Below, piece after piece: positions 19,413 through 28,409 of a stretch of 50,841 nt of DNA. Positions within the stretch are counted from its first letter, which is position 1; each line of letters begins with the position of its first letter. The stretch covers positions 1 through 50,841 of the forward strand of contig JAJUJH010000004.1 of assembly GCA_029265435.1 (NCBI GenBank), written 5' to 3'. The notes under the pieces are model-generated. The model was not told where the DNA came from, did not search any database, and saw nothing but the letters and a program-made list of their open reading frames with translations. The stretch comes from Clostridiales bacterium. GTDB taxonomy: Bacteria; Bacillota; Clostridia; Christensenellales; SZUA-584. Position numbers and translations under genes: made by a program.

Positions 19413-19760
19413 TCAAGCTTTTGCGTCCTTGAGTTTTGCGGCCTTGCCCGCCCGCTCGCGCAGGAAGTAAAGCTTCGACCGTCTGACCTTGCTGTGGCGC
19501 ACCACTTCGATTTCCGCGATCTTCGGCGAATGGAGCGGGAACGTCCTTTCCACGCCGATTCCGAAAGACACGCGGCGAACGGTGATTGTCTCCTTGAGGC
19601 CGCCGCCTTTTCTGGCGATCACATATCCCTCGAAAGCCTGAAGGCGCTCTCTTGTGCCTTCAATAACCTTAACGGACACCCTGACGACGTCGCCGATTTT
19701 GATCTCAGGAAGATCGGTGCGCATCTGTTCCTGTTCAATGGCTTTAATGATCTGGCTCAT
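19413..19760 (-). CDS. rplS: 50S ribosomal protein L19
   Basis: 115 aa: [50 protein letters not shown], a canonical L19 sequence. Confidence 0.97.
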
Positions 19761-19841
19761 GCTGATTCCTCCTCCCAGTATAGGCGTTCTTAACCGGCTT
19801 ACAAAAATGCGGACAGCGGACCGCCCTCAATCAACCATGCG

Positions 19842-19871
19842 ATTATAGCACAGCTTCACACGCTCTGACAA
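19842..19871 (-). promoter_or_regulatory. Sigma-A-type promoter for rplS (TTGTCA-18-TGCTATAAT)
   Basis: Minus-strand reading gives -35 TTGTCA (19871-19866) and an extended -10 TGCTATAAT with the hexamer at 19847-19842. The resulting 5' UTR is about 75 nt. Confidence 0.5.
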
Positions 19872-19984
19872 GACAAAAGTTCAAAGAAAACCGGCAAATC
19901 GCCTTAAAAATGCCGTTTATTGCGTCAATGAACCGAAACCCGGCGAAAAACCCGGCCTTTCTTTTCGCTTTTCGTATTTTTTCC

Positions 19985-20014
19985 TTGACGAAACGAAACG
20001 TCTTTGCATATAAT
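19985..20014 (+). promoter_or_regulatory. Sigma-A-type promoter of the aromatic amino acid operon (TTGACG-18-TATAAT)
   Basis: TTGACG at 19985-19990 and TATAAT at 20009-20014. The leader to the aroF ATG is about 260 nt. Confidence 0.55.
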
Positions 20015-20041
20015 AAGGCAAACCTTTTTTATGGAGCAGAC

Positions 20042-20155
20042 ATGAACGTAAAGCTGTCGAACCGTTATTTTTCGTTTAGCAGCCGGAGCTATTATGGCTT
20101 CGGATACTTTACGTTAAATCAATACGGACTGAAACGGTCATGGGCGGCTCAATAA
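20042..20155 (+). CDS. Candidate aromatic-rich leader peptide (37 aa) of the aro operon
   Basis: GGAG lies 5 nt before ATG 20042. The product is MNVKLSNRYFSFSSRSYYGFGYFTLNQYGLKRSWAAQ, with 5 Tyr, 4 Phe and 1 Trp in 37 codons. It lies downstream of the promoter and 25 nt upstream of a terminator hairpin. Confidence 0.45.
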   Translation: MNVKLSNRYFSFSSRSYYGFGYFTLNQYGLKRSWAAQ

Positions 20156-20177
20156 AAAAGCCATATCAATTGTCAGC

Positions 20178-20207
20178 AAAGGGAGCTCATTACCGGGCTC
20201 CCTTTTT
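20178..20207 (+). terminator. Intrinsic terminator (attenuator) inside the aro leader
   Basis: AAAGGGAGCUC-AUUACC-GGGCUCCCUUUUU forms an 8-bp GC-rich stem plus a U5 run, 75 nt upstream of the aroF start. Confidence 0.7.
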
Positions 20208-20281
20208 GAATACGCACTCATGTGCGAAAAATACCGGGAGCAGGCAAACTCCCTTTGCAGGACGGAAGGACGGAAAAAAGC

Positions 20282-21298
20282 ATGATCATTATTTTGAAAC
20301 CCGGCGCGGAAAAACAAAAGGTTGACGACCTGATCCGCTTTCTTCAAAGCGAGTATTCGCTGGAGGTGCAGCGTATGGACGGCGTCAATTATTCGATACT
20401 CGGACTCATCGGCGACACATCCGCGCTGGACACCGAGCCGATACAGGAACGCAGCGTCGTGAAAAAGGTGATGCGCGTGCAGGAGCCTTACAAAAAGGTG
20501 AACCGCGCGTTTCATCCGGACGACACGGTCGTGCAGGGCAGCGGCTTCACGATCGGCGCGGAGCGGCTCGCCGTAATGGCTGGGCCGTGCAGCGTGGAAA
20601 GCGAGGAGCAGATCGTGTCCCTTGCGCGCAAAGTGAAAGCCGCGGGAGCGAATTTTCTTCGCGGCGGCGCGTTCAAGCCGCGCACCAGCCCCTACAACTT
20701 TCAGGGCCTCGGCGAAGAAGGCCTTAAATACCTTGAGACCGCCAAGGCCGAAACGGGGCTGCCCATCGTGACGGAAATCACGAACGTGGAGCACGTCGAG
20801 CTGTTCGTGCGGAAGGTGGACGTGATCCAGGTGGGCGCCCGCAACATGCAGAACTTTGCGCTGCTGCGCGAGCTCGGCAAAACCAAAACGCCGGTGCTTT
20901 TGAAACGCGGCCTTTCCGCCACGATAGAGGAATGGCTGATGAGCGCCGAATACATCGCGGCGGGCGGCAACCCCAACGTGGTGCTCTGCGAGCGGGGCAT
21001 CCGCACTTTCGAAACGGCGACGCGCAACACGCTGGACCTGTCCGCTGTGCCTGTCGTCAAACGCATGAGCCATCTGCCCGTTATCGTGGACCCGAGCCAT
21101 GCGACAGGGCTGTGGTGGGCGGTGGAGCCGCTGGCCGTGGCCGCCGTATGCGCGGGCGCCGACGGCGTGATGATCGAAGTGCACGAAAGCCCCGCGGAAG
21201 CGCTTTCGGACGGCAAGCAGTCTCTGCTTCCCGAAAAATTCTCTTCCGTGACGCAAAAGCTGAAAGCCGCCGCAGAGCTGATGGGCAGGACGCTATGA
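20282..21298 (+). CDS. aroF: 3-deoxy-7-phosphoheptulonate (DAHP) synthase, type I-beta with an N-terminal ferredoxin-like regulatory domain
   Basis: Trimmed to ATG 20282 (MIIILKPGAEKQKVDDLIRFL...). A small N-terminal domain of about 70 aa precedes a KDO8PS-like TIM barrel (GPCSVES, LRGGAFKPRTSPY, DPSH). Confidence 0.9.
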   Translation: MIIILKPGAEKQKVDDLIRFLQSEYSLEVQRMDGVNYSILGLIGDTSALDTEPIQERSVVKKVMRVQEPYKKVNRAFHPDDTVVQGSGFTIGAERLAVMAGPCSVESEEQIVSLARKVKAAGANFLRGGAFKPRTSPYNFQGLGEEGLKYLETAKAETGLPIVTEITNVEHVELFVRKVDVIQVGARNMQNFALLRELGKTKTPVLLKRGLSATIEEWLMSAEYIAAGGNPNVVLCERGIRTFETATRNTLDLSAVPVVKRMSHLPVIVDPSHATGLWWAVEPLAVAAVCAGADGVMIEVHESPAEALSDGKQSLLPEKFSSVTQKLKAAAELMGRTL

Positions 21299-22131
21299 TA
21301 AAAGACCGATTTACAAACAGCCGCATCCTCGTTGCGGGGCTGGGGCTTATCGGCGGTTCCGCCGCCAAAGCGCTGAAAAAAACCGGCTGCGCGCATATCG
21401 ACGCGCTCGACAGCGACGTTCGGTCCGTTGAAGCGGCTATGGCCGACGGCGTGATCGAGTTCGGGTATACCGGCACCGGCGGTCCGTACGATATCGTCAT
21501 CTGCGCGCTGCCCCCAAGAGCCGTGCCCGATATCTACGGGCAGGTGAAGGACCGGCTTGCGGACGGCGGCGTGTTCGCCGAGCTTTCGGGGCTCAAGACC
21601 GCGCTTGTGGACGCGCTTTACGATGTGATGCAGCCTCGTCATTCGCTTCTGTGCCTCCACCCGATGGCGGGCAGCGAAAAGTCGGGGTACGCGCATTCGA
21701 GCGCGGCGCTTTTCGAAGGCGCGCATCTGATCGTGACGCCGACGGAGAAAACGACGGACTTATCGCTGGAATGGTCGGAATTCCTGTTTAAGGCGTTCGG
21801 GTGCGCGCGGAAATCGTCGCTCTCCCCCGCGCTTCACGACGCGGTGATTGCCGACATGAGCCATCTGCCCCACGTGGCCGCGCTTGCCGTATATGCGGTG
21901 GGAAAAGGGCTTGAGCGGTTCGCGGGCGGCAGCTTTCAGGCAATCACGCGCGTGGCCGATTTGAACGCGCCGCTGTGGGCGGGGCTGTTGACGGACAACG
22001 CGGAATATCTGCAGCGCAGCCTTGCGCGCCTGCGGCGCAACCTCGACATGATCGACGAGGCGCTGACCGAGCGCGACAGGGACAAGCTTGAAATCCTGCT
22101 CTCAAATATGGCCAAAGGAGCCGATATATGA
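21295..22131 (+). CDS. tyrA: Prephenate dehydrogenase
   Basis: Trimmed to ATG 21295, which overlaps the aroF stop as ATGA. The NAD-binding motif ILVAGLGLIGGSAAKAL and HPMAG are present; 278 aa. Confidence 0.85.
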   Translation: MIKDRFTNSRILVAGLGLIGGSAAKALKKTGCAHIDALDSDVRSVEAAMADGVIEFGYTGTGGPYDIVICALPPRAVPDIYGQVKDRLADGGVFAELSGLKTALVDALYDVMQPRHSLLCLHPMAGSEKSGYAHSSAALFEGAHLIVTPTEKTTDLSLEWSEFLFKAFGCARKSSLSPALHDAVIADMSHLPHVAALAVYAVGKGLERFAGGSFQAITRVADLNAPLWAGLLTDNAEYLQRSLARLRRNLDMIDEALTERDRDKLEILLSNMAKGADI

Positions 22132-23195
22132 ACATGCTGACCATGCGCGCGGGAAGCGCCGAATATTCCGTATATGTCGAAAGGGGACTGCTCAAAAGCG
22201 TGCCCGGACGGCTTAAAGAAATGTTTCCCGAAAGCCGGCTCGCCGTCATCACGGACGACAATGTCGGCAGTCTGTACGGGCAGTCCTTCGCCGCCGCGTG
22301 CGAAACGGCGGGGCTTCGCTGCGACCTTTTCAGCGTTGCGCCCGGCGAAGGCTCGAAAAGCGCCGGCACGTTCGCGCGGCTTTTGAGCGAGCTTGCGCAG
22401 CACGGCTACAACCGCGCCGATGTGGTTGCCGCGCTGGGCGGCGGCGTTGTGGGAGACCTCGCCGGCTTCGTGGCCGCGGTGTATCTTCGCGGCGTGAAGG
22501 CCGTGCAGATTCCCACCACGCTGCTCGCGCAAATCGACAGCTCCGTGGGCGGCAAAACCGGCATCAACCTGCCCGAGGGCAAAAACCTCGCGGGCGCGTT
22601 CCATCAGCCGAGCGCCGTGTTCGTGGACCCGTCGCTTCTGGGAACGCTTTCCGAAGCGGATTTTGCGGACGGCATGGCGGAGCTCGTCAAATACGCGCTC
22701 ATCCGCGACGCGGAAATGTTTGAACAGCTTGAGCGGTTCGGCGCGGCTCCGGCCGGTTCGGATATGCTCGATTCGTGGATCGTCCGCTGTCTTTCCATCA
22801 AGCGCGATATCGTCGCGGCGGATGAAAAAGACACGGGCGAACGCATGCTGCTGAACTTCGGCCACACCATCGGGCACGGCATCGAGCGGCTTTGCGCCGC
22901 AAAGAATCTGCCGATGACGCACGGGCGCGCCGTCGCGATCGGCATGACGGCCATCACATCGGCCGCGGAACGCATGGGGCTCGCCAAAGCGGGCACCGCG
23001 GAGCGCATCGCCTGCGTGCTGCATAAAACGGGCCTGCCTTACGACATATCGGCATATGACAAGGACGAGATATGGAAGGGTATAGTCGTGGACAAGAAAA
23101 CCCTTGCCGACAAGCTGACGCTTGTAATCGTATCCGAGCCGGGCCGCGCCATGCTTCACCGCGTCGCCGCCGCCGACGCCAGAAATTTTCTATGA
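22128..23195 (+). CDS. aroB: 3-dehydroquinate synthase
   Basis: 355 aa with GGGVVGDLAGFVAA, the D..VGGKTGIN motif and FGHT.GH metal ligands. AAAGGAG SD is present, and the start overlaps the tyrA stop (ATGA). Confidence 0.92.
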   Translation: MNMLTMRAGSAEYSVYVERGLLKSVPGRLKEMFPESRLAVITDDNVGSLYGQSFAAACETAGLRCDLFSVAPGEGSKSAGTFARLLSELAQHGYNRADVVAALGGGVVGDLAGFVAAVYLRGVKAVQIPTTLLAQIDSSVGGKTGINLPEGKNLAGAFHQPSAVFVDPSLLGTLSEADFADGMAELVKYALIRDAEMFEQLERFGAAPAGSDMLDSWIVRCLSIKRDIVAADEKDTGERMLLNFGHTIGHGIERLCAAKNLPMTHGRAVAIGMTAITSAAERMGLAKAGTAERIACVLHKTGLPYDISAYDKDEIWKGIVVDKKTLADKLTLVIVSEPGRAMLHRVAAADARNFL

Positions 23196-23205
23196 GGAGT
23201 CAGCC

Positions 23206-24474
23206 ATGCAGATAACCGTTTCATCCTCCGCCTATGGCGGCGCCGTCACCGCACCGCCCTCCAAAAGCGCGGCGCACCGCGCCGTACTCGCGGCGGCAAT
23301 GGCAAAAGGCCGCAGCGTCATACACAACGTCGATTTGTCGAGCGATCTTAACGCCACGGTCGGCGCCTGCCGCAGTCTCGGATGCGCAATAACCGTCCGG
23401 CAGTGCGGACGCTACCATACGCTCGTCATAGACGGCGGCCTCTCCCTTTCCGGAGAAGCCCTGATTGACTGCGCCGAATCCGGCTCTACGCTGCGCTTCT
23501 TCATTCCCGTGGCGTGCACGCTCGGCGGCGTCAAGACGTTTACCGGCCAAGGCCGCCTGCCGTTCCGCCCTATCGACGCGTATCTGGCCGTTTTTGACCG
23601 GCAAGGCATTGCCTATACCCGTCCCGAGGGCGCAAACCTGCCGCTGACGGTATCCGGCGCGCTTGAAGGCGGCCGATATGAGATCGACGGGCGCGTGAGC
23701 TCGCAGTTCGTCACGGGGCTTTTGTATGCGCTGCCCGTGCTCGCCGCCGATTCCGCCATCTGCGTGACCGGCGGCTTTGAATCCCGCGGATACGTCGATA
23801 TGACGGTGGATACGCTCCGCCGGTTCGGTATCGACATCGGCGTTTCCGGCGATACGTTCTTAATAAAGGGCGGCCAGCGGTATGCCCCGCAGGAGCTCAC
23901 CGTCGAAGGCGATTATTCTCAGGCCGCTTTTTTTCTCGTGGCGGGCGCACTCTCGGGCGGCGCGCGCATCGAAGGGCTCCGCGGCGGCTCCTTGCAGCCC
24001 GACGGCGCGATCGTGCCGATCATGCGGCGCATGGGCGCGGATATCCGGCGTGAGGAAGACGGCGCGCTGACCGTCAGGCAGTCGGCGCTGTCGGCGGCCG
24101 ATATCGACGCGTCGCAATGTCCCGACCTTGTGCCCCCGCTTGCCGTCGCGGCGGCGTTCGCAAAAGGGCGCACGCGCATCACGGGCGCGGCGCGGCTGCG
24201 CATCAAGGAATGCGACCGTCTGCACGCGCTGGCGGTCAACCTGAACGCGCTCGGCATCGGCGTCTGCGAAACGGACGACGGGCTCATCATTGAAGGCGGC
24301 GCGATGAAGGGCGGCATCGTCGATACCTACGGCGACCACCGCATCGCGATGGCGTTTGCCGTCGCGGCGGCGCGCGCATCCGGAAAAATCGTGATTCCGA
24401 ATGCGGAATGCGTCGGGAAATCGTACCCGAAGTTCTACGACGACTTGAAAGCACTGGGAGGAAACATACAATGA
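23206..24474 (+). CDS. aroA: 3-phosphoshikimate 1-carboxyvinyltransferase (EPSP synthase)
   Basis: 422 aa. PPSKSAAHRAVLAAAMA, ESGSTLRFF and GDHRIAMAFAVAA are typical EPSPS motifs. Confidence 0.93.
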   Translation: MQITVSSSAYGGAVTAPPSKSAAHRAVLAAAMAKGRSVIHNVDLSSDLNATVGACRSLGCAITVRQCGRYHTLVIDGGLSLSGEALIDCAESGSTLRFFIPVACTLGGVKTFTGQGRLPFRPIDAYLAVFDRQGIAYTRPEGANLPLTVSGALEGGRYEIDGRVSSQFVTGLLYALPVLAADSAICVTGGFESRGYVDMTVDTLRRFGIDIGVSGDTFLIKGGQRYAPQELTVEGDYSQAAFFLVAGALSGGARIEGLRGGSLQPDGAIVPIMRRMGADIRREEDGALTVRQSALSAADIDASQCPDLVPPLAVAAAFAKGRTRITGAARLRIKECDRLHALAVNLNALGIGVCETDDGLIIEGGAMKGGIVDTYGDHRIAMAFAVAAARASGKIVIPNAECVGKSYPKFYDDLKALGGNIQ

Positions 24475-25550
24475 GCAGCATATGGGGGCGCTTTTTCACC
24501 GTGGATATATTCGGAGAATCGCACGGGCCGAAGATCGGCGTTGTGCTGAACGGCCTTGCGCCGGGCACCGTACTGGATTTTCCGAAGATACGCGCGTTTT
24601 TGGACAGGCGGCGCGCGGGCGGCGAAGCATGGTCTACCAAGCGCCAAGAAACGGACGATTTTGAGCTGGTCAGCGGCTATGCAAACGGCTTTTCCACGGG
24701 CACGCCGCTCTGCGTGCTTTTCCACAACGCCGCACAGAGAAGCGCGGACTACGACGAGCGCGTGAACCGTCCGGGCCATGCCGATTATACGGGCCATGTG
24801 CGCTACGGCGGTTTCAACGACCCGCGCGGCGGCGGCCATTTTTCGGGCAGGCTGACCGCCCCGCTCGTATTCGCGGGCGCCGTGGCGGCTCAGGTGCTTG
24901 CGGCAAAGGGCGTTTACACCGCCGTTCATATCCGCCGCATCGCGGATATCGAGGACGCGGCTTTCGACCCGACGGACATTTCCCGCGAGCAGGCACAGCG
25001 CCTTTCCGCCTCGCGCTTTCCTCTGCTCGACGAATCAAAGCGCGAGGCGATGGAGGAACGCGTCAGGCAGGCCGCGGCCGAGGGCGATTCCGTGGGCGGC
25101 GTCGTTGAATGTGCGGTATGCGGCCTTCCCGCCGGGCTCGGCAGCCCGATGATGGACTCGGTGGAGAGCCGTCTTTCGTCTCTGCTTTTCGCGATCCCCG
25201 CCGTCAAGGGCGTATCGTTCGGCGCGGGTTTCCGTTTTGCCCATATGAGGGGCAGCGAAGCCAACGACGCCTACGCGCTGAGAGACGGCGCCGTCGTCAC
25301 GACAACCAACCACAACGGCGGCGTGCTCGGCGGTATCACAAACGGCATGCCCGTCGTGTTTGAAGCCGTTGTGAAGCCTACGCCTTCCATATCAAAGCCG
25401 CAGCGCACGGTGAACCTGAGTACGATGGAAGAGGAGACCGTCTGCGTCAAAGGCCGGCACGACGCGTGCATCGTGCCGCGGGCGGCGGCGGTGATCGATG
25501 CGGCGGCCAATATCTGCATGCTCGATCTGATGACGGAAAGGGGGCTTTAA
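24471..25550 (+). CDS. aroC: Chorismate synthase
   Basis: Trimmed to ATG 24471, which overlaps the aroA stop as ATGA. FGESHGP, RPGHADY and GGG.FSGR motifs are present. Confidence 0.92.
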   Translation: MSSIWGRFFTVDIFGESHGPKIGVVLNGLAPGTVLDFPKIRAFLDRRRAGGEAWSTKRQETDDFELVSGYANGFSTGTPLCVLFHNAAQRSADYDERVNRPGHADYTGHVRYGGFNDPRGGGHFSGRLTAPLVFAGAVAAQVLAAKGVYTAVHIRRIADIEDAAFDPTDISREQAQRLSASRFPLLDESKREAMEERVRQAAAEGDSVGGVVECAVCGLPAGLGSPMMDSVESRLSSLLFAIPAVKGVSFGAGFRFAHMRGSEANDAYALRDGAVVTTTNHNGGVLGGITNGMPVVFEAVVKPTPSISKPQRTVNLSTMEEETVCVKGRHDACIVPRAAAVIDAAANICMLDLMTERGL

Positions 25551-26669
25551 ATGGGTTACGAGGAAGACATCAAACGCCTGAGAGACGAAATAGACGGCAT
25601 CGACGCGCAGCTCGTGCCGCTTTTCGAAGCGCGCATGGCGGCGGCGGAGGCTGTCGCCGAAGTCAAAAGCCGCTACGGCATGCCGGTTTTCGACGCGGAG
25701 CGCGAAAATGCCGTGATCGGCCGAGCGCTTGAGCGGCTCCGGGACGCCAAAAACGGCGAAGCCGCGCGTCGGTTTTTCCGCGCGCTCATGGACCTCAGCA
25801 AACAGCGCCAGCATATTCAAATCAGACAAACCGGCGCAGCGCCCGCCGGCGATGGCATGCCGGTGGGATACCTCGGCCTTAAAGGGTCGTTCTCGCACAT
25901 CGCGGCGGTTGAAACCTTCGGGGAAGGCGCGCCGCTCCAAAGCTATGACACATTTGAAGACATGTTCGAGGCGCTGCGCCGCGGCGAAATAGGCCGAGCG
26001 ATATTGCCCGCGGAAAATACCGAGACGGGCAGCATCACCGCCGTGATCGATCTGCTCGCGAAATACGGCTATTTCATCGTCGCGGAAAAGCTTTTAAAGG
26101 TGGAGCACAGCCTTCTCGGTCTGCCGGACGCGGAACTTTCGGACATCAGAACGGTCTGCTCTCACCCCGAGCCCATTATGCAGTGCAGCCGTTTTCTGCA
26201 CGCGCATCCGGCCATCGCCGCATTTCCCGCGCTCAGCACGGCGCAGGCGGCTATGAGCGTCGCGGAAAAGAAGGACAAAACGCTCGGCTGCATCGCGTCC
26301 GAGCGGTGCGCAAAAGAATACGGCCTCAAAGTCATTGAAGCAAATATACAAAACAGCCAGGGAAACGCCACGCGCTTTGTGGTGGCGGCGAAAAGCCCCG
26401 TTTTAAGCCCCGCGTGCGACAAGACAAGCATCGTTTTCAAGGTGGAGCACCGCCCCGGCTCTCTCTGCGAGATGCTCAAATTATTTTCCGGCATCAACAT
26501 ACTGAAGCTGGAGTCGCGCCCGCTTAAAGACAGGCCTTTCGAATATCTGTTCCACCTCGATTTCGAGGGCAGCGCGGAGGATGAAAACGTCTCGCGCGTG
26601 CTCAGGCAGGCCGAAAAATGCGCGGCCGATCTCATATGGCTCGGTTCTTACCCGCGCATGACGCTGTAA
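25551..26669 (+). CDS. pheA: Bifunctional chorismate mutase / prephenate dehydratase (P-protein) with C-terminal ACT domain
   Basis: N-terminal CM type 2 (LRDEIDGIDAQLVPLFEARM), a PDT core (GYLGLKGSFSH ... TRF) and an ACT-like ESRP motif (LESRPLKDRPFEY.F). Confidence 0.9.
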   Translation: MGYEEDIKRLRDEIDGIDAQLVPLFEARMAAAEAVAEVKSRYGMPVFDAERENAVIGRALERLRDAKNGEAARRFFRALMDLSKQRQHIQIRQTGAAPAGDGMPVGYLGLKGSFSHIAAVETFGEGAPLQSYDTFEDMFEALRRGEIGRAILPAENTETGSITAVIDLLAKYGYFIVAEKLLKVEHSLLGLPDAELSDIRTVCSHPEPIMQCSRFLHAHPAIAAFPALSTAQAAMSVAEKKDKTLGCIASERCAKEYGLKVIEANIQNSQGNATRFVVAAKSPVLSPACDKTSIVFKVEHRPGSLCEMLKLFSGINILKLESRPLKDRPFEYLFHLDFEGSAEDENVSRVLRQAEKCAADLIWLGSYPRMTL

Positions 26670-26679
26670 AGGAGGCGGC

Positions 26680-27981
26680 ATGATCAAAGCCGGATTGATT
26701 GGCGGGAAGCTGTCTCACAGCCTTTCTCCGCAGATACATGAAAAATACTGGCGCCTTTCTGGCATGCTCGGGCGTTATGCGCTGATAGAAACCGACGAGC
26801 GGCATTTGAAGGAGCGCCTTGACGAGATTCAGGCACTGGGGTTTGCGGGCGTCAACGTGACGATACCGCACAAAACGGCGGTGATGCGCTGTCTGGATGT
26901 GATATCGCCCGAGGCCGACGCGATCGGGGCGGTCAACACGATTCATTTCCGCTCCGGCAAGCGAATCGGCCACAACACCGATTACTTCGGCTTAAAGTCT
27001 TTGCTGGACAGAAACGGCTTTACGCTGACGGGCAGCCGCGTGGCGATACTCGGCTCAGGCGGTGCGGCGCGATGCGCGCTCGCCCTTTGCCGCGACGAGC
27101 AGGCCGCCGAGGTTTTGGTGGTGAGCCGCTCTCCCGAAAAAGCCGACGCAATGCTGAACGCCGTCGGCTATGAAGCGCTTGACGCTTCGGACCGAATCGA
27201 CCTGCTCATCAACGCCACGCCTTCCGGCATGTTCCCCCATACGGGCGAATGCCCCGTTTCCGACGCGGTGATCCAAAAGTGCGAGAACATTGCCGATATG
27301 ATATACAACCCCGCGCGCACGCTGCTGCTGCAAAAAGCCGCCAAGCTCGGCAAGGGTGCCGTCAACGGGCTCTGGATGCTTTGCGCGCAGGCAATCAAAG
27401 CGCAGGAGATATGGACGGGCAGGCCGTTCGAGGAACCCATTTGCCGCACGATCTACGAGGGGCTCAAGGAGCCCGTGCCGCGTTCCAACATCGTGCTGAT
27501 CGGCATGCCGGGCAGCGGCAAATCCACGGTCGGGCAGATACTGGCCGAACGGCTGTTTTACCGTTTTGCGGATACCGACGCGATGATCGAGGCGCAGCAC
27601 GGCTTGATACAGACGATATTCGATACGCAGGGCGAAGCGGTTTTCCGTGATATGGAGCTCAAAGCGGCGCGGCAGGCTGCCTGCAGGCAAAACTGCGTCG
27701 TCTCCACAGGCGGGGGCATCGTCCAGACCGGCGCCGCGATGGATGCGCTTAAGGAAACGGGGATTGTGGTATACATCGACAGACCGCTCGAAAAGCTGCT
27801 CAACGAAGTGGACATATCGGGCAGGCCGCTGCTTGCGGGCGGACGGCAGCAGCTCATCGCGCTGTTTCAAAAGCGGCGCGCGCTTTATCGGCAATATGCG
27901 GACGTCGTCATCGATAACAGCGGCTCCGCGCGGCAATGCGCCGAACAAATCATACAAAAGCTGGAGGATATCCGAAAATGA
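26680..27981 (+). CDS. aroE: Fused shikimate dehydrogenase (AroE, N-terminal ~265 aa) and shikimate kinase (AroK, C-terminal ~165 aa)
   Basis: The SDH part shows SLSPQIH, NVTIPHK, NTDY.G and GSGGAAR. After residue ~270 comes a P-loop kinase with NIVLIGMPGSGKSTVG and FADTD. It is a single uninterrupted 433-codon frame. Confidence 0.88.
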   Translation: MIKAGLIGGKLSHSLSPQIHEKYWRLSGMLGRYALIETDERHLKERLDEIQALGFAGVNVTIPHKTAVMRCLDVISPEADAIGAVNTIHFRSGKRIGHNTDYFGLKSLLDRNGFTLTGSRVAILGSGGAARCALALCRDEQAAEVLVVSRSPEKADAMLNAVGYEALDASDRIDLLINATPSGMFPHTGECPVSDAVIQKCENIADMIYNPARTLLLQKAAKLGKGAVNGLWMLCAQAIKAQEIWTGRPFEEPICRTIYEGLKEPVPRSNIVLIGMPGSGKSTVGQILAERLFYRFADTDAMIEAQHGLIQTIFDTQGEAVFRDMELKAARQAACRQNCVVSTGGGIVQTGAAMDALKETGIVVYIDRPLEKLLNEVDISGRPLLAGGRQQLIALFQKRRALYRQYADVVIDNSGSARQCAEQIIQKLEDIRK

Positions 27982-28409
27982 AAATACTCGTCATCAACGG
28001 GCCGAACCTGAACCTTTTGGGCACGCGCGAGCCGGACGTATACGGCAGACAGGATTACGCGGCGCTGATAAACAAGCTTGACGGCTTCGCAAAAGAAAAA
28101 GGCGTCGTGATCGACGCGTTCCAGTCAAACGGCGAGGGCGCGATTATCGACCGAATCCACGCGGCGGCGGGAGAATACGACGGCATTGTGATCAATCCGG
28201 GCGCGTATACGCATTACAGCATCGCGATACACGACGCGCTGAAGGCGGTGAATGTGCCCGCCATCGAGGTGCATATAAGCAACATCGCCGCACGCGAGGA
28301 TTTCCGCCATGCGTCGGTGACGGCGGCGGCATGTGCCGGCCAGATTTCCGGCCTCGGCTTTAATTCGTATCTTCTCGCGGTTCAGGCGCTGATCGACATG
28401 CAGAATTGA
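27978..28409 (+). CDS. aroQ: Type II 3-dehydroquinate dehydratase
   Basis: Trimmed to ATG 27978, which overlaps the previous stop as ATGA. MKILVINGPNLNLLGTREP..YG and INPGAYTHYS are type II DHQase signatures. Confidence 0.93.
   Translation: MKILVINGPNLNLLGTREPDVYGRQDYAALINKLDGFAKEKGVVIDAFQSNGEGAIIDRIHAAAGEYDGIVINPGAYTHYSIAIHDALKAVNVPAIEVHISNIAAREDFRHASVTAAACAGQISGLGFNSYLLAVQALIDMQN

Follow-up and report, generated by a model that had tools for sequence, protein, structure and literature searches.

In teaching, leader-peptide attenuation is usually assigned to Proteobacteria and Actinobacteria, and control by T-boxes, TRAP and riboswitches to the Bacillota. We analyzed a 50,841-nt stretch of DNA from a Clostridiales bacterium (Christensenellales, SZUA-584; GenBank assembly GCA_029265435.1, contig JAJUJH010000004.1, positions 1 to 50,841), referred to below as the window, in which a short open reading frame (ORF) rich in Phe and Tyr codons and an intrinsic terminator (T) lie upstream of an aromatic biosynthesis operon that begins with aroF. 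With a probability of roughly 80 %, this leader is a ribosome-mediated leader-peptide attenuator that sets expression of the operon from aroF to aroQ by the supply of charged tRNA-Tyr and tRNA-Phe.

The pheL-pheA, trpL, thrL and ilvL leaders of E. coli resemble it in having a leader with cognate codons and alternative hairpins between which the position of the ribosome decides. Sensing of more than one amino acid is likewise known from the thr and ilv leaders. Compared with these attenuators, the window leader has its regulatory codons distributed around a hairpin over some 20 codons, takes the 3' end of the ORF itself as the antiterminator (AT) strand and uses the ribosome-binding site (RBS) of the leader as the anti-antiterminator partner of that strand. 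The unit controlled here comprises the common pathway plus the Phe and Tyr branches, and no Rfam leader family matched. T-boxes and TRAP share with the window the kind of signal (tRNA charging, or Trp) and an AT/T choice in the 5' leader, whereas the window leader lacks Stem I, the T-box sequence and a (G/U)AG array and would sense through translation.

Closer parallels have been described at aroF itself. In C. glutamicum, the AroR leader (Phe-Tyr-Phe) upstream of aroF was shown experimentally (Neshat et al. 2014, as cited in PMC11802643). As summarized there, it shares with the window a mixed Phe/Tyr leader ORF, and stalling under Phe limitation raises transcription; it differs in being actinobacterial and in having a short F-Y-F motif rather than nine dispersed Tyr/Phe codons. 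The two further helices of the window leader, called P1 and P0 below, are not described for aroR in the accessible text of PMC11802643, and the comparison is one of descriptions. The candidate uORFC-13-1 (Brewer et al. 2021, PMC8632094) was proposed from 24 representatives in Acholeplasma and environmental sequences with an emphasis on Phe. As far as its accessible description goes, it also has a promoter, RBS, start codon, U-rich Phe codons, a terminator before aroF and an extra paired substructure; it differs from the present family, with which it was compared by text description, in its emphasis on Phe alone and in its restriction to Acholeplasma and environmental sequences. Within the Bacillota, His leader-peptide attenuators in place of T-boxes were predicted for the B. 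cereus group, Peptostreptococcaceae including C. difficile, and Erysipelotrichales (PMC9413887, PMC2965389). Those leaders have a run of 3-5 His codons, precede another operon and occur in narrow lineages.

The leader ORF and its competing RNA helices

When the sequence upstream of aroF was read, the promoter, the Shine-Dalgarno sequence (SD, GGAG at 20033-20036, 5 nt ahead of the ATG), the 37-codon ORF with ten aromatic codons, its stop codon, the hairpins and the aroF start were all found at the positions given in a preliminary description of this DNA (Table 1). The terminator with its U5 was also confirmed, and its stem was extended to 11 bp, made up of the 8 G/C-rich pairs already noted and 3 A-U pairs. 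Judging from the promoter, transcription would start near 20021.

Table 1 Elements of the aro leader and the operon downstream of it, in window coordinates
Feature	Coordinates	Strand	Description
Sigma-A type promoter	19985..20014	+	TTGACG 19985-19990, 18-nt spacer, TATAAT 20009-20014; 11/12 consensus match (consensus scan)
P0 5' strand	20024..20049	+	U-run, SD GGAG, AUG 20042; pairs with 20134-20160
Leader ORF	20042..20155	+	37 codons, MNVKLSNRYFSFSSRSYYGFGYFTLNQYGLKRSWAAQ, plus TAA 20153-20155; 5 Tyr, 4 Phe, 1 Trp
P1 intra-ORF hairpin	20083..20103	+	CCGGAGCUA / UAGCUUCGG-type stem; 20083-20091 pairs with 20095-20103; -12.5 kcal/mol
P0 3' strand	20134..20160	+	covers AT strand, stop codon and A-run; pairs with initiation region
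AT 5' strand	20135..20150	+	CGGUCAUGGGCGGCUC; overlaps codons 32-37, ends 3 nt before the stop
AT partner	20181..20195	+	GGGAGCUCAUUACCG, i.e. 5' arm and loop of T; duplex -17.7 kcal/mol
Terminator T	20178..20207	+	AAAGGGAGCUC-AUUACC-GGGCUCCCUUU + U5; 5' arm 20178-20188, loop 20189-20194, 3' arm 20195-20205, U5 20203-20207; -18.2 kcal/mol
Extra hairpins between T and aroF	20213..20253	+	CGCACUCAUGUGCG (~20213-20226); GGGAG-N8-CUCCC 20236-20253, spelled GGGAGC-AGGCAAAC-UCCCUUUG
Operon	20282..28409	+	aroF, tyrA, aroB, aroA, aroC, pheA, aroE-aroK fusion, aroQ (Pfam scan)

The aromatic codons of the leader are Y9, F10, F12, Y17, Y18, F20, Y22, F23, Y28 and W34, and the nine putative regulatory Tyr/Phe codons span 20066-20125. 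The share of 10/37 compares with 6.2 % aromatic residues in the operon's own proteins (binomial P = 6e-5); for the window alone, a scan statistic, a stricter test in which the 300 nt upstream were dinucleotide-shuffled, gave p ~0.017. The sole UGG codon (W34, 20141-20143) is located inside the AT strand and is probably structural (AUGGG), since a ribosome halted at this codon would promote termination. The element appears to sense Phe and Tyr rather than Trp, which matches an operon that contains tyrA and pheA (the latter encoding chorismate mutase and prephenate dehydratase, CM+PDT, by Pfam scan) and no trp genes.

A scan with the AroF protein, using one genome per GTDB species, yielded 80 loci. 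The leader of the window recurs in its closest relatives L001-L003 (Christensenellaceae or Bacillota metagenome-assembled genomes, MAGs; 82 % AroF identity), which share the promoter distance (TTGAC-N17/18-(GCA)TATAAT equally far upstream of the leader ORF), the SD and ATG, an ORF of 37-39 codons and a nearly invariant terminator stem; their peptides have the core YFSF..(RS/PG)YY(Y)GFGY(F/L)(T/A)L. A pattern scan of metagenomes also gave many chance or unrelated matches in coding regions, and only hits with leader context were used. It added three members of the same clade (L082, L090 and L157) and a large human-gut group with MAYDVFGWSYYYGFGYFCC.... In these six close relatives the SD, ATG, frame and a length of 34-39 aa are kept, with the common core YFSF..RSYY(Y)GFGYF. 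The aromatic positions are maintained through synonymous changes (TTT/TTC, TAT/TAC), as are other positions (GGA/GGG/GGT, TTA/TTG), and the additional Tyr of some members is a whole-codon TAT indel. While the N- and C-termini diverge, frame, length and stop position do not. Synonymous changes, a whole-codon indel and a kept frame and stop are the pattern expected of a translated ORF.

The leader frame is also open further upstream, back to an ATG at 19910 (81 aa, 19910-20155, + strand), and a gene caller could report this longer ORF. That ATG precedes the promoter and is not matched by a conserved start in the relatives, and a protein database search with the 81-aa in-frame extension found no match.

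The same layout, an F- and Y-rich ORF of 16-58 aa (median 38) with SD and ATG followed by a strong intrinsic terminator, was found at about 50 of the 80 AroF loci. These include C. difficile, Clostridium, Haloimpatiens, Acetobacterium, Alkalibacter, Gracilibacter, Blautia, Roseburia, Monoglobus, Oscillospiraceae, Phascolarctobacterium, Megasphaera and Pelosinus. A terminator follows the ORF in 50 of 51 leaders, at a median distance of 33 nt from the stop codon. At p<0.01, 24 of the 80 loci are enriched in aromatic residues, compared with an expected 0.8. Thus the proposal of a translated aromatic leader with a terminator as an aro attenuator, which had been staked beforehand on the relatives, is strongly supported by what they show: both the ORF and its aromatic enrichment are kept. 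The accompanying expectation that such a leader would be unusual in Firmicutes has to be given up, as the element is present at roughly half or more of the sampled aroF loci of Clostridia and Negativicutes and the analogous leaders cited above were already published or proposed. About 30 of the 80 loci (L016, L020, L025, L027-L031 and others, mostly Ruminococcus/Oscillospiraceae MAGs) have no aromatic leader ORF; in the three of these that were scanned (L016, L020 and L025), no T-box or other Rfam family was found upstream of aroF.

Over 58 non-redundant leaders, F makes up 14.6 %, Y 12.3 % and W 1.6 % of the residues (F+Y+W 28.5 %). W occurs in 30 leaders, is absent from 28 and is not evidently enriched. 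Together with the position of the window's own UGG, this speaks against the Trp sensing that had been suggested alongside Phe and Tyr. The peptides form several subtypes, namely FWGFYFSAGYFF (as in C. difficile), YYGFGYF (the window clade), FAFTFTFP and NFSFFFSFTAFTSGRV. Leaders of the FAFTFTFP or FTFTIP subfamily (L056, L053, L012, L014 and L007, all upstream of aroF) closely resemble the PheL peptide of E. coli, down to the subsequent Pro; this likeness could be convergence or an ancient relationship.

The terminator and antiterminator were compared at three levels. In the window, the AT strand at the 3' end of the ORF pairs with the 5' arm and loop of T, and the folded AT segment (20134-20196) has a free energy of -16.0 kcal/mol. 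In a seven-sequence alignment of the clade, 89 % of the AT cells are paired versus 37-52 % in slid controls, with compensatory changes at three pairs (U-A to C-G twice, and C-G/U-G to U-A); for T, 97 % of the cells are paired across the seven members and the stem sequence is nearly invariant. Across the family, the best partner of the T 5' arm and loop lies at or beside the leader stop codon in about 90 % of the loci. Pairing within the same locus (mean -13.7 kcal/mol) is stronger than pairing between loci (-9.9 kcal/mol; permutation sd 0.36, >10 sd, p<1e-4), and reversed-sequence controls have a mean of -10.4 kcal/mol. The pooled Stouffer Z against shuffles is -13.5; the signal is clear only when the search is confined to the neighbourhood of the stop codon and pooled, the per-locus z with whole-region shuffles being weak (median -0.9).

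This AT replaces the one proposed in the preliminary description, in which the 5' half of P1 would pair with AGCUC...CCGG in the terminator (-10.2 kcal/mol). That pairing is weak, it would lie under a ribosome stalled at the Tyr/Phe codons, and it showed no co-variation in the family (own- versus cross-locus, p = 0.14). A pairing of the P1 3' arm with the T 5' arm was also tried and rejected (-8.5 kcal/mol; no co-variation in own- versus cross-locus comparison, p = 0.36).

The third helix, P0, joins the initiation region to the 3' end of the ORF. Its duplex has a free energy of -23.2 kcal/mol (z = -3.3) and is present in the minimum free energy (MFE) fold of the window leader. Own-locus pairing is again stronger than cross-locus pairing in the family (mean -17.5 versus -13.2 kcal/mol, sd 0.42; Stouffer Z -9.7), and as the P0 sequences differ between loci, this is co-variation at the level of the helix. 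In the folding model, P0 would act as an anti-antiterminator and would also sequester the SD.

Proposed mechanism and competing explanations

The leader combines an ORF with its own SD and start, cognate codons, a terminator and a mutually exclusive AT slightly weaker than T, as a leader-peptide attenuator should. The preliminary description had called for folding of the leader in search of exclusive structures, and constrained folds gave either T or AT depending on the position of the ribosome, with the AT formed by 20135-20150. With no ribosome, P0, P1 and T form, leaving the operon off. T also forms when a ribosome sits at the stop codon (20138-20168 masked). With a stall at Tyr17/18 and an occupied initiation region, AT forms once 20181-20194 has been made and before the T 3' arm.

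We infer the following sequence of events as the most likely one. A ribosome would load at GGAG/AUG 20042 while the leader is being transcribed from about 20021. When Phe and Tyr are plentiful, it would reach the TAA at 20153 and cover about 20138-20168, including the AT strand; after its release, the initiation region would capture 20135-20150 through P0, T would fold and the polymerase would stop before aroF. If there were no translation at all, the terminator would likewise be free to form. When Phe-tRNA or Tyr-tRNA is scarce, the ribosome would stall on the nine Tyr/Phe codons and following ribosomes would occupy the initiation region, so that the free AT strand could pair with 20181-20195 before the T 3' arm emerges and transcription would read through into the operon. 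P1 probably pauses the polymerase or slows the ribosome and so keeps transcription and translation coupled, by analogy with the 1:2 pause hairpin of E. coli trp.

Several observations weigh against this attenuation model. When the stalled ribosome alone was masked, the MFE fold kept P0, and AT required a blocked initiation region as well. In the window, AT (-16.0 kcal/mol) is slightly weaker than T (-18.2 kcal/mol), so that T always wins at equilibrium and AT must act kinetically. There are relatives, such as C. difficile, whose AT strand lies 25-45 nt ahead of the stop codon; simple masking by a ribosome that terminates does not account for these cases, and additional steps must operate. The co-variation in the clade comes from seven sequences, and 18-27 of 500 shuffles reached the observed values. 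In one RNA-seq run, coverage was flat across the C. difficile-type terminator, which is compatible with a read-through condition and provides no evidence of attenuation. Finally, the RNA-seq runs for the organism of the window contain at most 10 % of the sampled words, too little for use.

The homologous leader of C. difficile aroF (L043) was examined with public RNA reads, which come from a strain of 90-99 % identity. Transcription begins some 26-29 nt ahead of the leader ATG, the reads cover the leader ORF, and in one sample the leader transcript continues into aroF, indicating co-transcription. In another run, very deep short contigs were found only at 3696-3831 of L043 (the 5' untranslated region through P1 and a U-rich tail), with an adapter junction at about 3818. 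These reads show that the leader is transcribed and give no measure of regulation. According to Fuchs et al. (PMC8237595), aroF is among the C. difficile genes with an experimentally mapped premature-termination event, which lies 5' of the gene and for which no mechanism is given there.

An equivalent of P1 was found in nearly all leaders. In the window, as the preliminary description had proposed, the hairpin folds well and carries the Tyr17/Tyr18 codons in its loop and surroundings; it has no U-tract. Elsewhere in the family, P1 often has UAUUUUUGC or UAUUUCUUUU directly after it and scores as a weak terminator, and in such U-tract species P1 may give rise to a genuine 3' end or to strong pausing. 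The arms of P1 consist of conserved non-aromatic codons (W/R/Q-G/S in the 5' arm, S-x-G in the 3' arm), and the outer stem co-varies, e.g. CCGGAGCU/GGCUUCGG, CCAAAGCU/AGCUUUGG and CUUGGGCU/AGCGCAAG. Position o3 is occupied by UA, CG, UG or AU, and positions o4 and o5 by GC, GU, UA, AU or CG.

P1 bears on the strongest of the rival explanations, a sensor of the TnaC/SecM type in which the nascent core YYGFGYF or WGFYFSAGYF would arrest the ribosome in response to a free aromatic amino acid or another ligand. Such a sensor would account for a motif that exceeds a simple codon run in length and patterning, and for the G, S and A between the aromatic residues, which are conserved as amino acids with third-position variation. 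However, the conserved non-aromatic codons are exactly those of the P1 arms, which co-vary as RNA, and for the Ser of the 3' arm only AGY codons, and no UCN codons, occur. The pairing of the arms thus explains the apparent conservation of residues other than F and Y. Other subfamilies have different peptides (FAFTFTFP, NFSFFFSFTAF) within the same layout, and if the ribosome stalled in response to an abundant free amino acid, this AT/T geometry would switch a biosynthetic operon in the wrong direction. We therefore consider an arrest peptide unlikely.

Somewhat less probable still is an RNA switch around P1 and the terminator that binds a protein or ligand and in which the ORF is incidental. 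Such a switch would fit both with P1, which co-varies and is more conserved than any other RNA feature, and with the unusually good folding of the whole leader RNA (z = -4.7). It would leave unexplained, though, why the SD and ATG, the frame, whole-codon indels and synonymous variation at the aromatic codons are conserved in spite of unalignable flanks, why the stop codon tracks the AT strand across lineages and why both F and Y are present in 58/58 leaders; there was also no Rfam match over the window leader or in 16 related loci.

We regard it as very improbable that the ORF is a chance occurrence, or encodes a functional aromatic or hydrophobic peptide unrelated to regulation, ahead of an ordinary hairpin. 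The modest scan-statistic p of the window taken alone would allow this, and the C. difficile ORF is occasionally annotated as 'hypothetical protein'. Nevertheless, the ORF recurs upstream of aroF in about 50 of the 80 loci, always with a terminator after it, and its 3' end co-evolves with the terminator arm, while the N- and C-termini of the peptide are unconserved.

Known regulatory elements were searched for in the leader and its relatives. An Rfam 15 scan of 19750-20350 at E<=10 returned no family, including Phe_leader, Trp_leader and leu/phe leader, and scans at the gathering threshold found nothing over the leader in the whole window and no family over the leader in 16 related loci. For a T-box (RF00230), there was neither an Rfam match at E<=10 nor a GGUGG.ACC core in the leader, in agreement with the preliminary description, which had seen no T-box consensus. 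As for TRAP, which in leaders of the Bacillus trp/aroFBH type binds about 9-11 (G/U)AG triplets set 2-3 nt apart and overlapping an antiterminator, the window leader has five scattered (G/U)AG triplets, the longest correctly spaced chain of which has one member. Although T-boxes, TRAP-binding leaders and other catalogued riboswitches are the textbook controls of aromatic operons in Bacillota, these searches leave hardly any room for an overlooked element of that kind.

Other features of the window

Two extra hairpins lie between T and aroF (Table 1). The second, noted in the preliminary description as a weaker hairpin, is present, and both are missing from the closest relatives (L001-L003), so they are not a conserved part of the switch. 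They repeat sequence of the terminator arms (CUCAU, GGGAGC and CUCCCUUU), and in the full-length MFE fold their region pairs with both arms of T and displaces the T hairpin. They could be the decayed remnant of a duplicated terminator or a structure formed after read-through. On the minus strand, the second extra hairpin scores as a terminator-like site.

In the operon, aroF starts with the ATG at 20282 and its product (DAHP synthase, 20282-21298, + strand) has a DAHP_synth_1 domain and an N-terminal ferredoxin-like (FXD) regulatory domain by Pfam scan; with the FXD domain, allosteric feedback is probably added to attenuation. Shikimate dehydrogenase and shikimate kinase (aroE-aroK) are encoded in a single 433-aa ORF (26680-27981, + strand). 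The window was searched for a nearby trp operon or a second leader and none was found; the neighbours are sugar ABC-transporter genes. The sole Rfam family in the window is a full-length malK-I RNA (RF03069; 703-888, - strand; 125 bits, E = 2e-23), whose presence fits these transporter genes.

Upstream of the leader, rplS is transcribed divergently. Its upstream region (19777-19871, - strand) has a good promoter-like site (TTGTCA-18-TATAAT with TG, 19871 to 19842), and in the rplS 5' leader a hairpin with a U-run (19826 to 19811) lies ahead of the start codon at 19760. The hairpin may be an r-protein leader or an attenuator; the Rfam L19_leader family did not match the rplS leader.

A Phe/Tyr leader family in Clostridia and Negativicutes

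The leader family appears to be uncatalogued and undescribed. Six representative leader peptides gave no NCBIfam match at E<=10 and, in Pfam, only a chance match of one peptide to DHHW (E = 0.12, 12 bits versus a cutoff of 25). The C. difficile leader was found in the protein database only as 'hypothetical protein' entries, and no description of an aro leader of Clostridia or Negativicutes was found in a full-text literature search (subscription-only papers lie outside it). While the class of mechanism is well known, what is apparently new is a leader family that spans Clostridia and Negativicutes.

A broader reading is possible, but we hold it tentatively and would at present bet against it. 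It takes the leaders as one large, ancient Phe/Tyr attenuator family that is the main control of the aro operon in Clostridia and Negativicutes, C. difficile and major gut commensals among them, and has a three-helix design: P1 with regulatory codons in its loop, AT formed from the 3' end of the ORF, and P0 locking the RBS against the AT strand. If this design were true, each transcript would in essence be read by ribosomes of a single pioneering round. If P1 were also a pause signal, it would be a Gram-positive counterpart, of independent origin, of the E. coli trp 1:2 pause hairpin.

Our data suggest that many Clostridia and Negativicutes, among them C. difficile and abundant gut genera, control their aromatic amino-acid supply through a translated Phe/Tyr sensor. 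If confirmed, it would account for the unexplained premature termination at C. difficile aroF and would improve the annotation of ORFs that are now missed or called 'hypothetical protein'. It would also provide a compact Phe/Tyr-responsive switch for the engineering of anaerobes, and a clear example of attenuators that evolved repeatedly, possibly by convergence.

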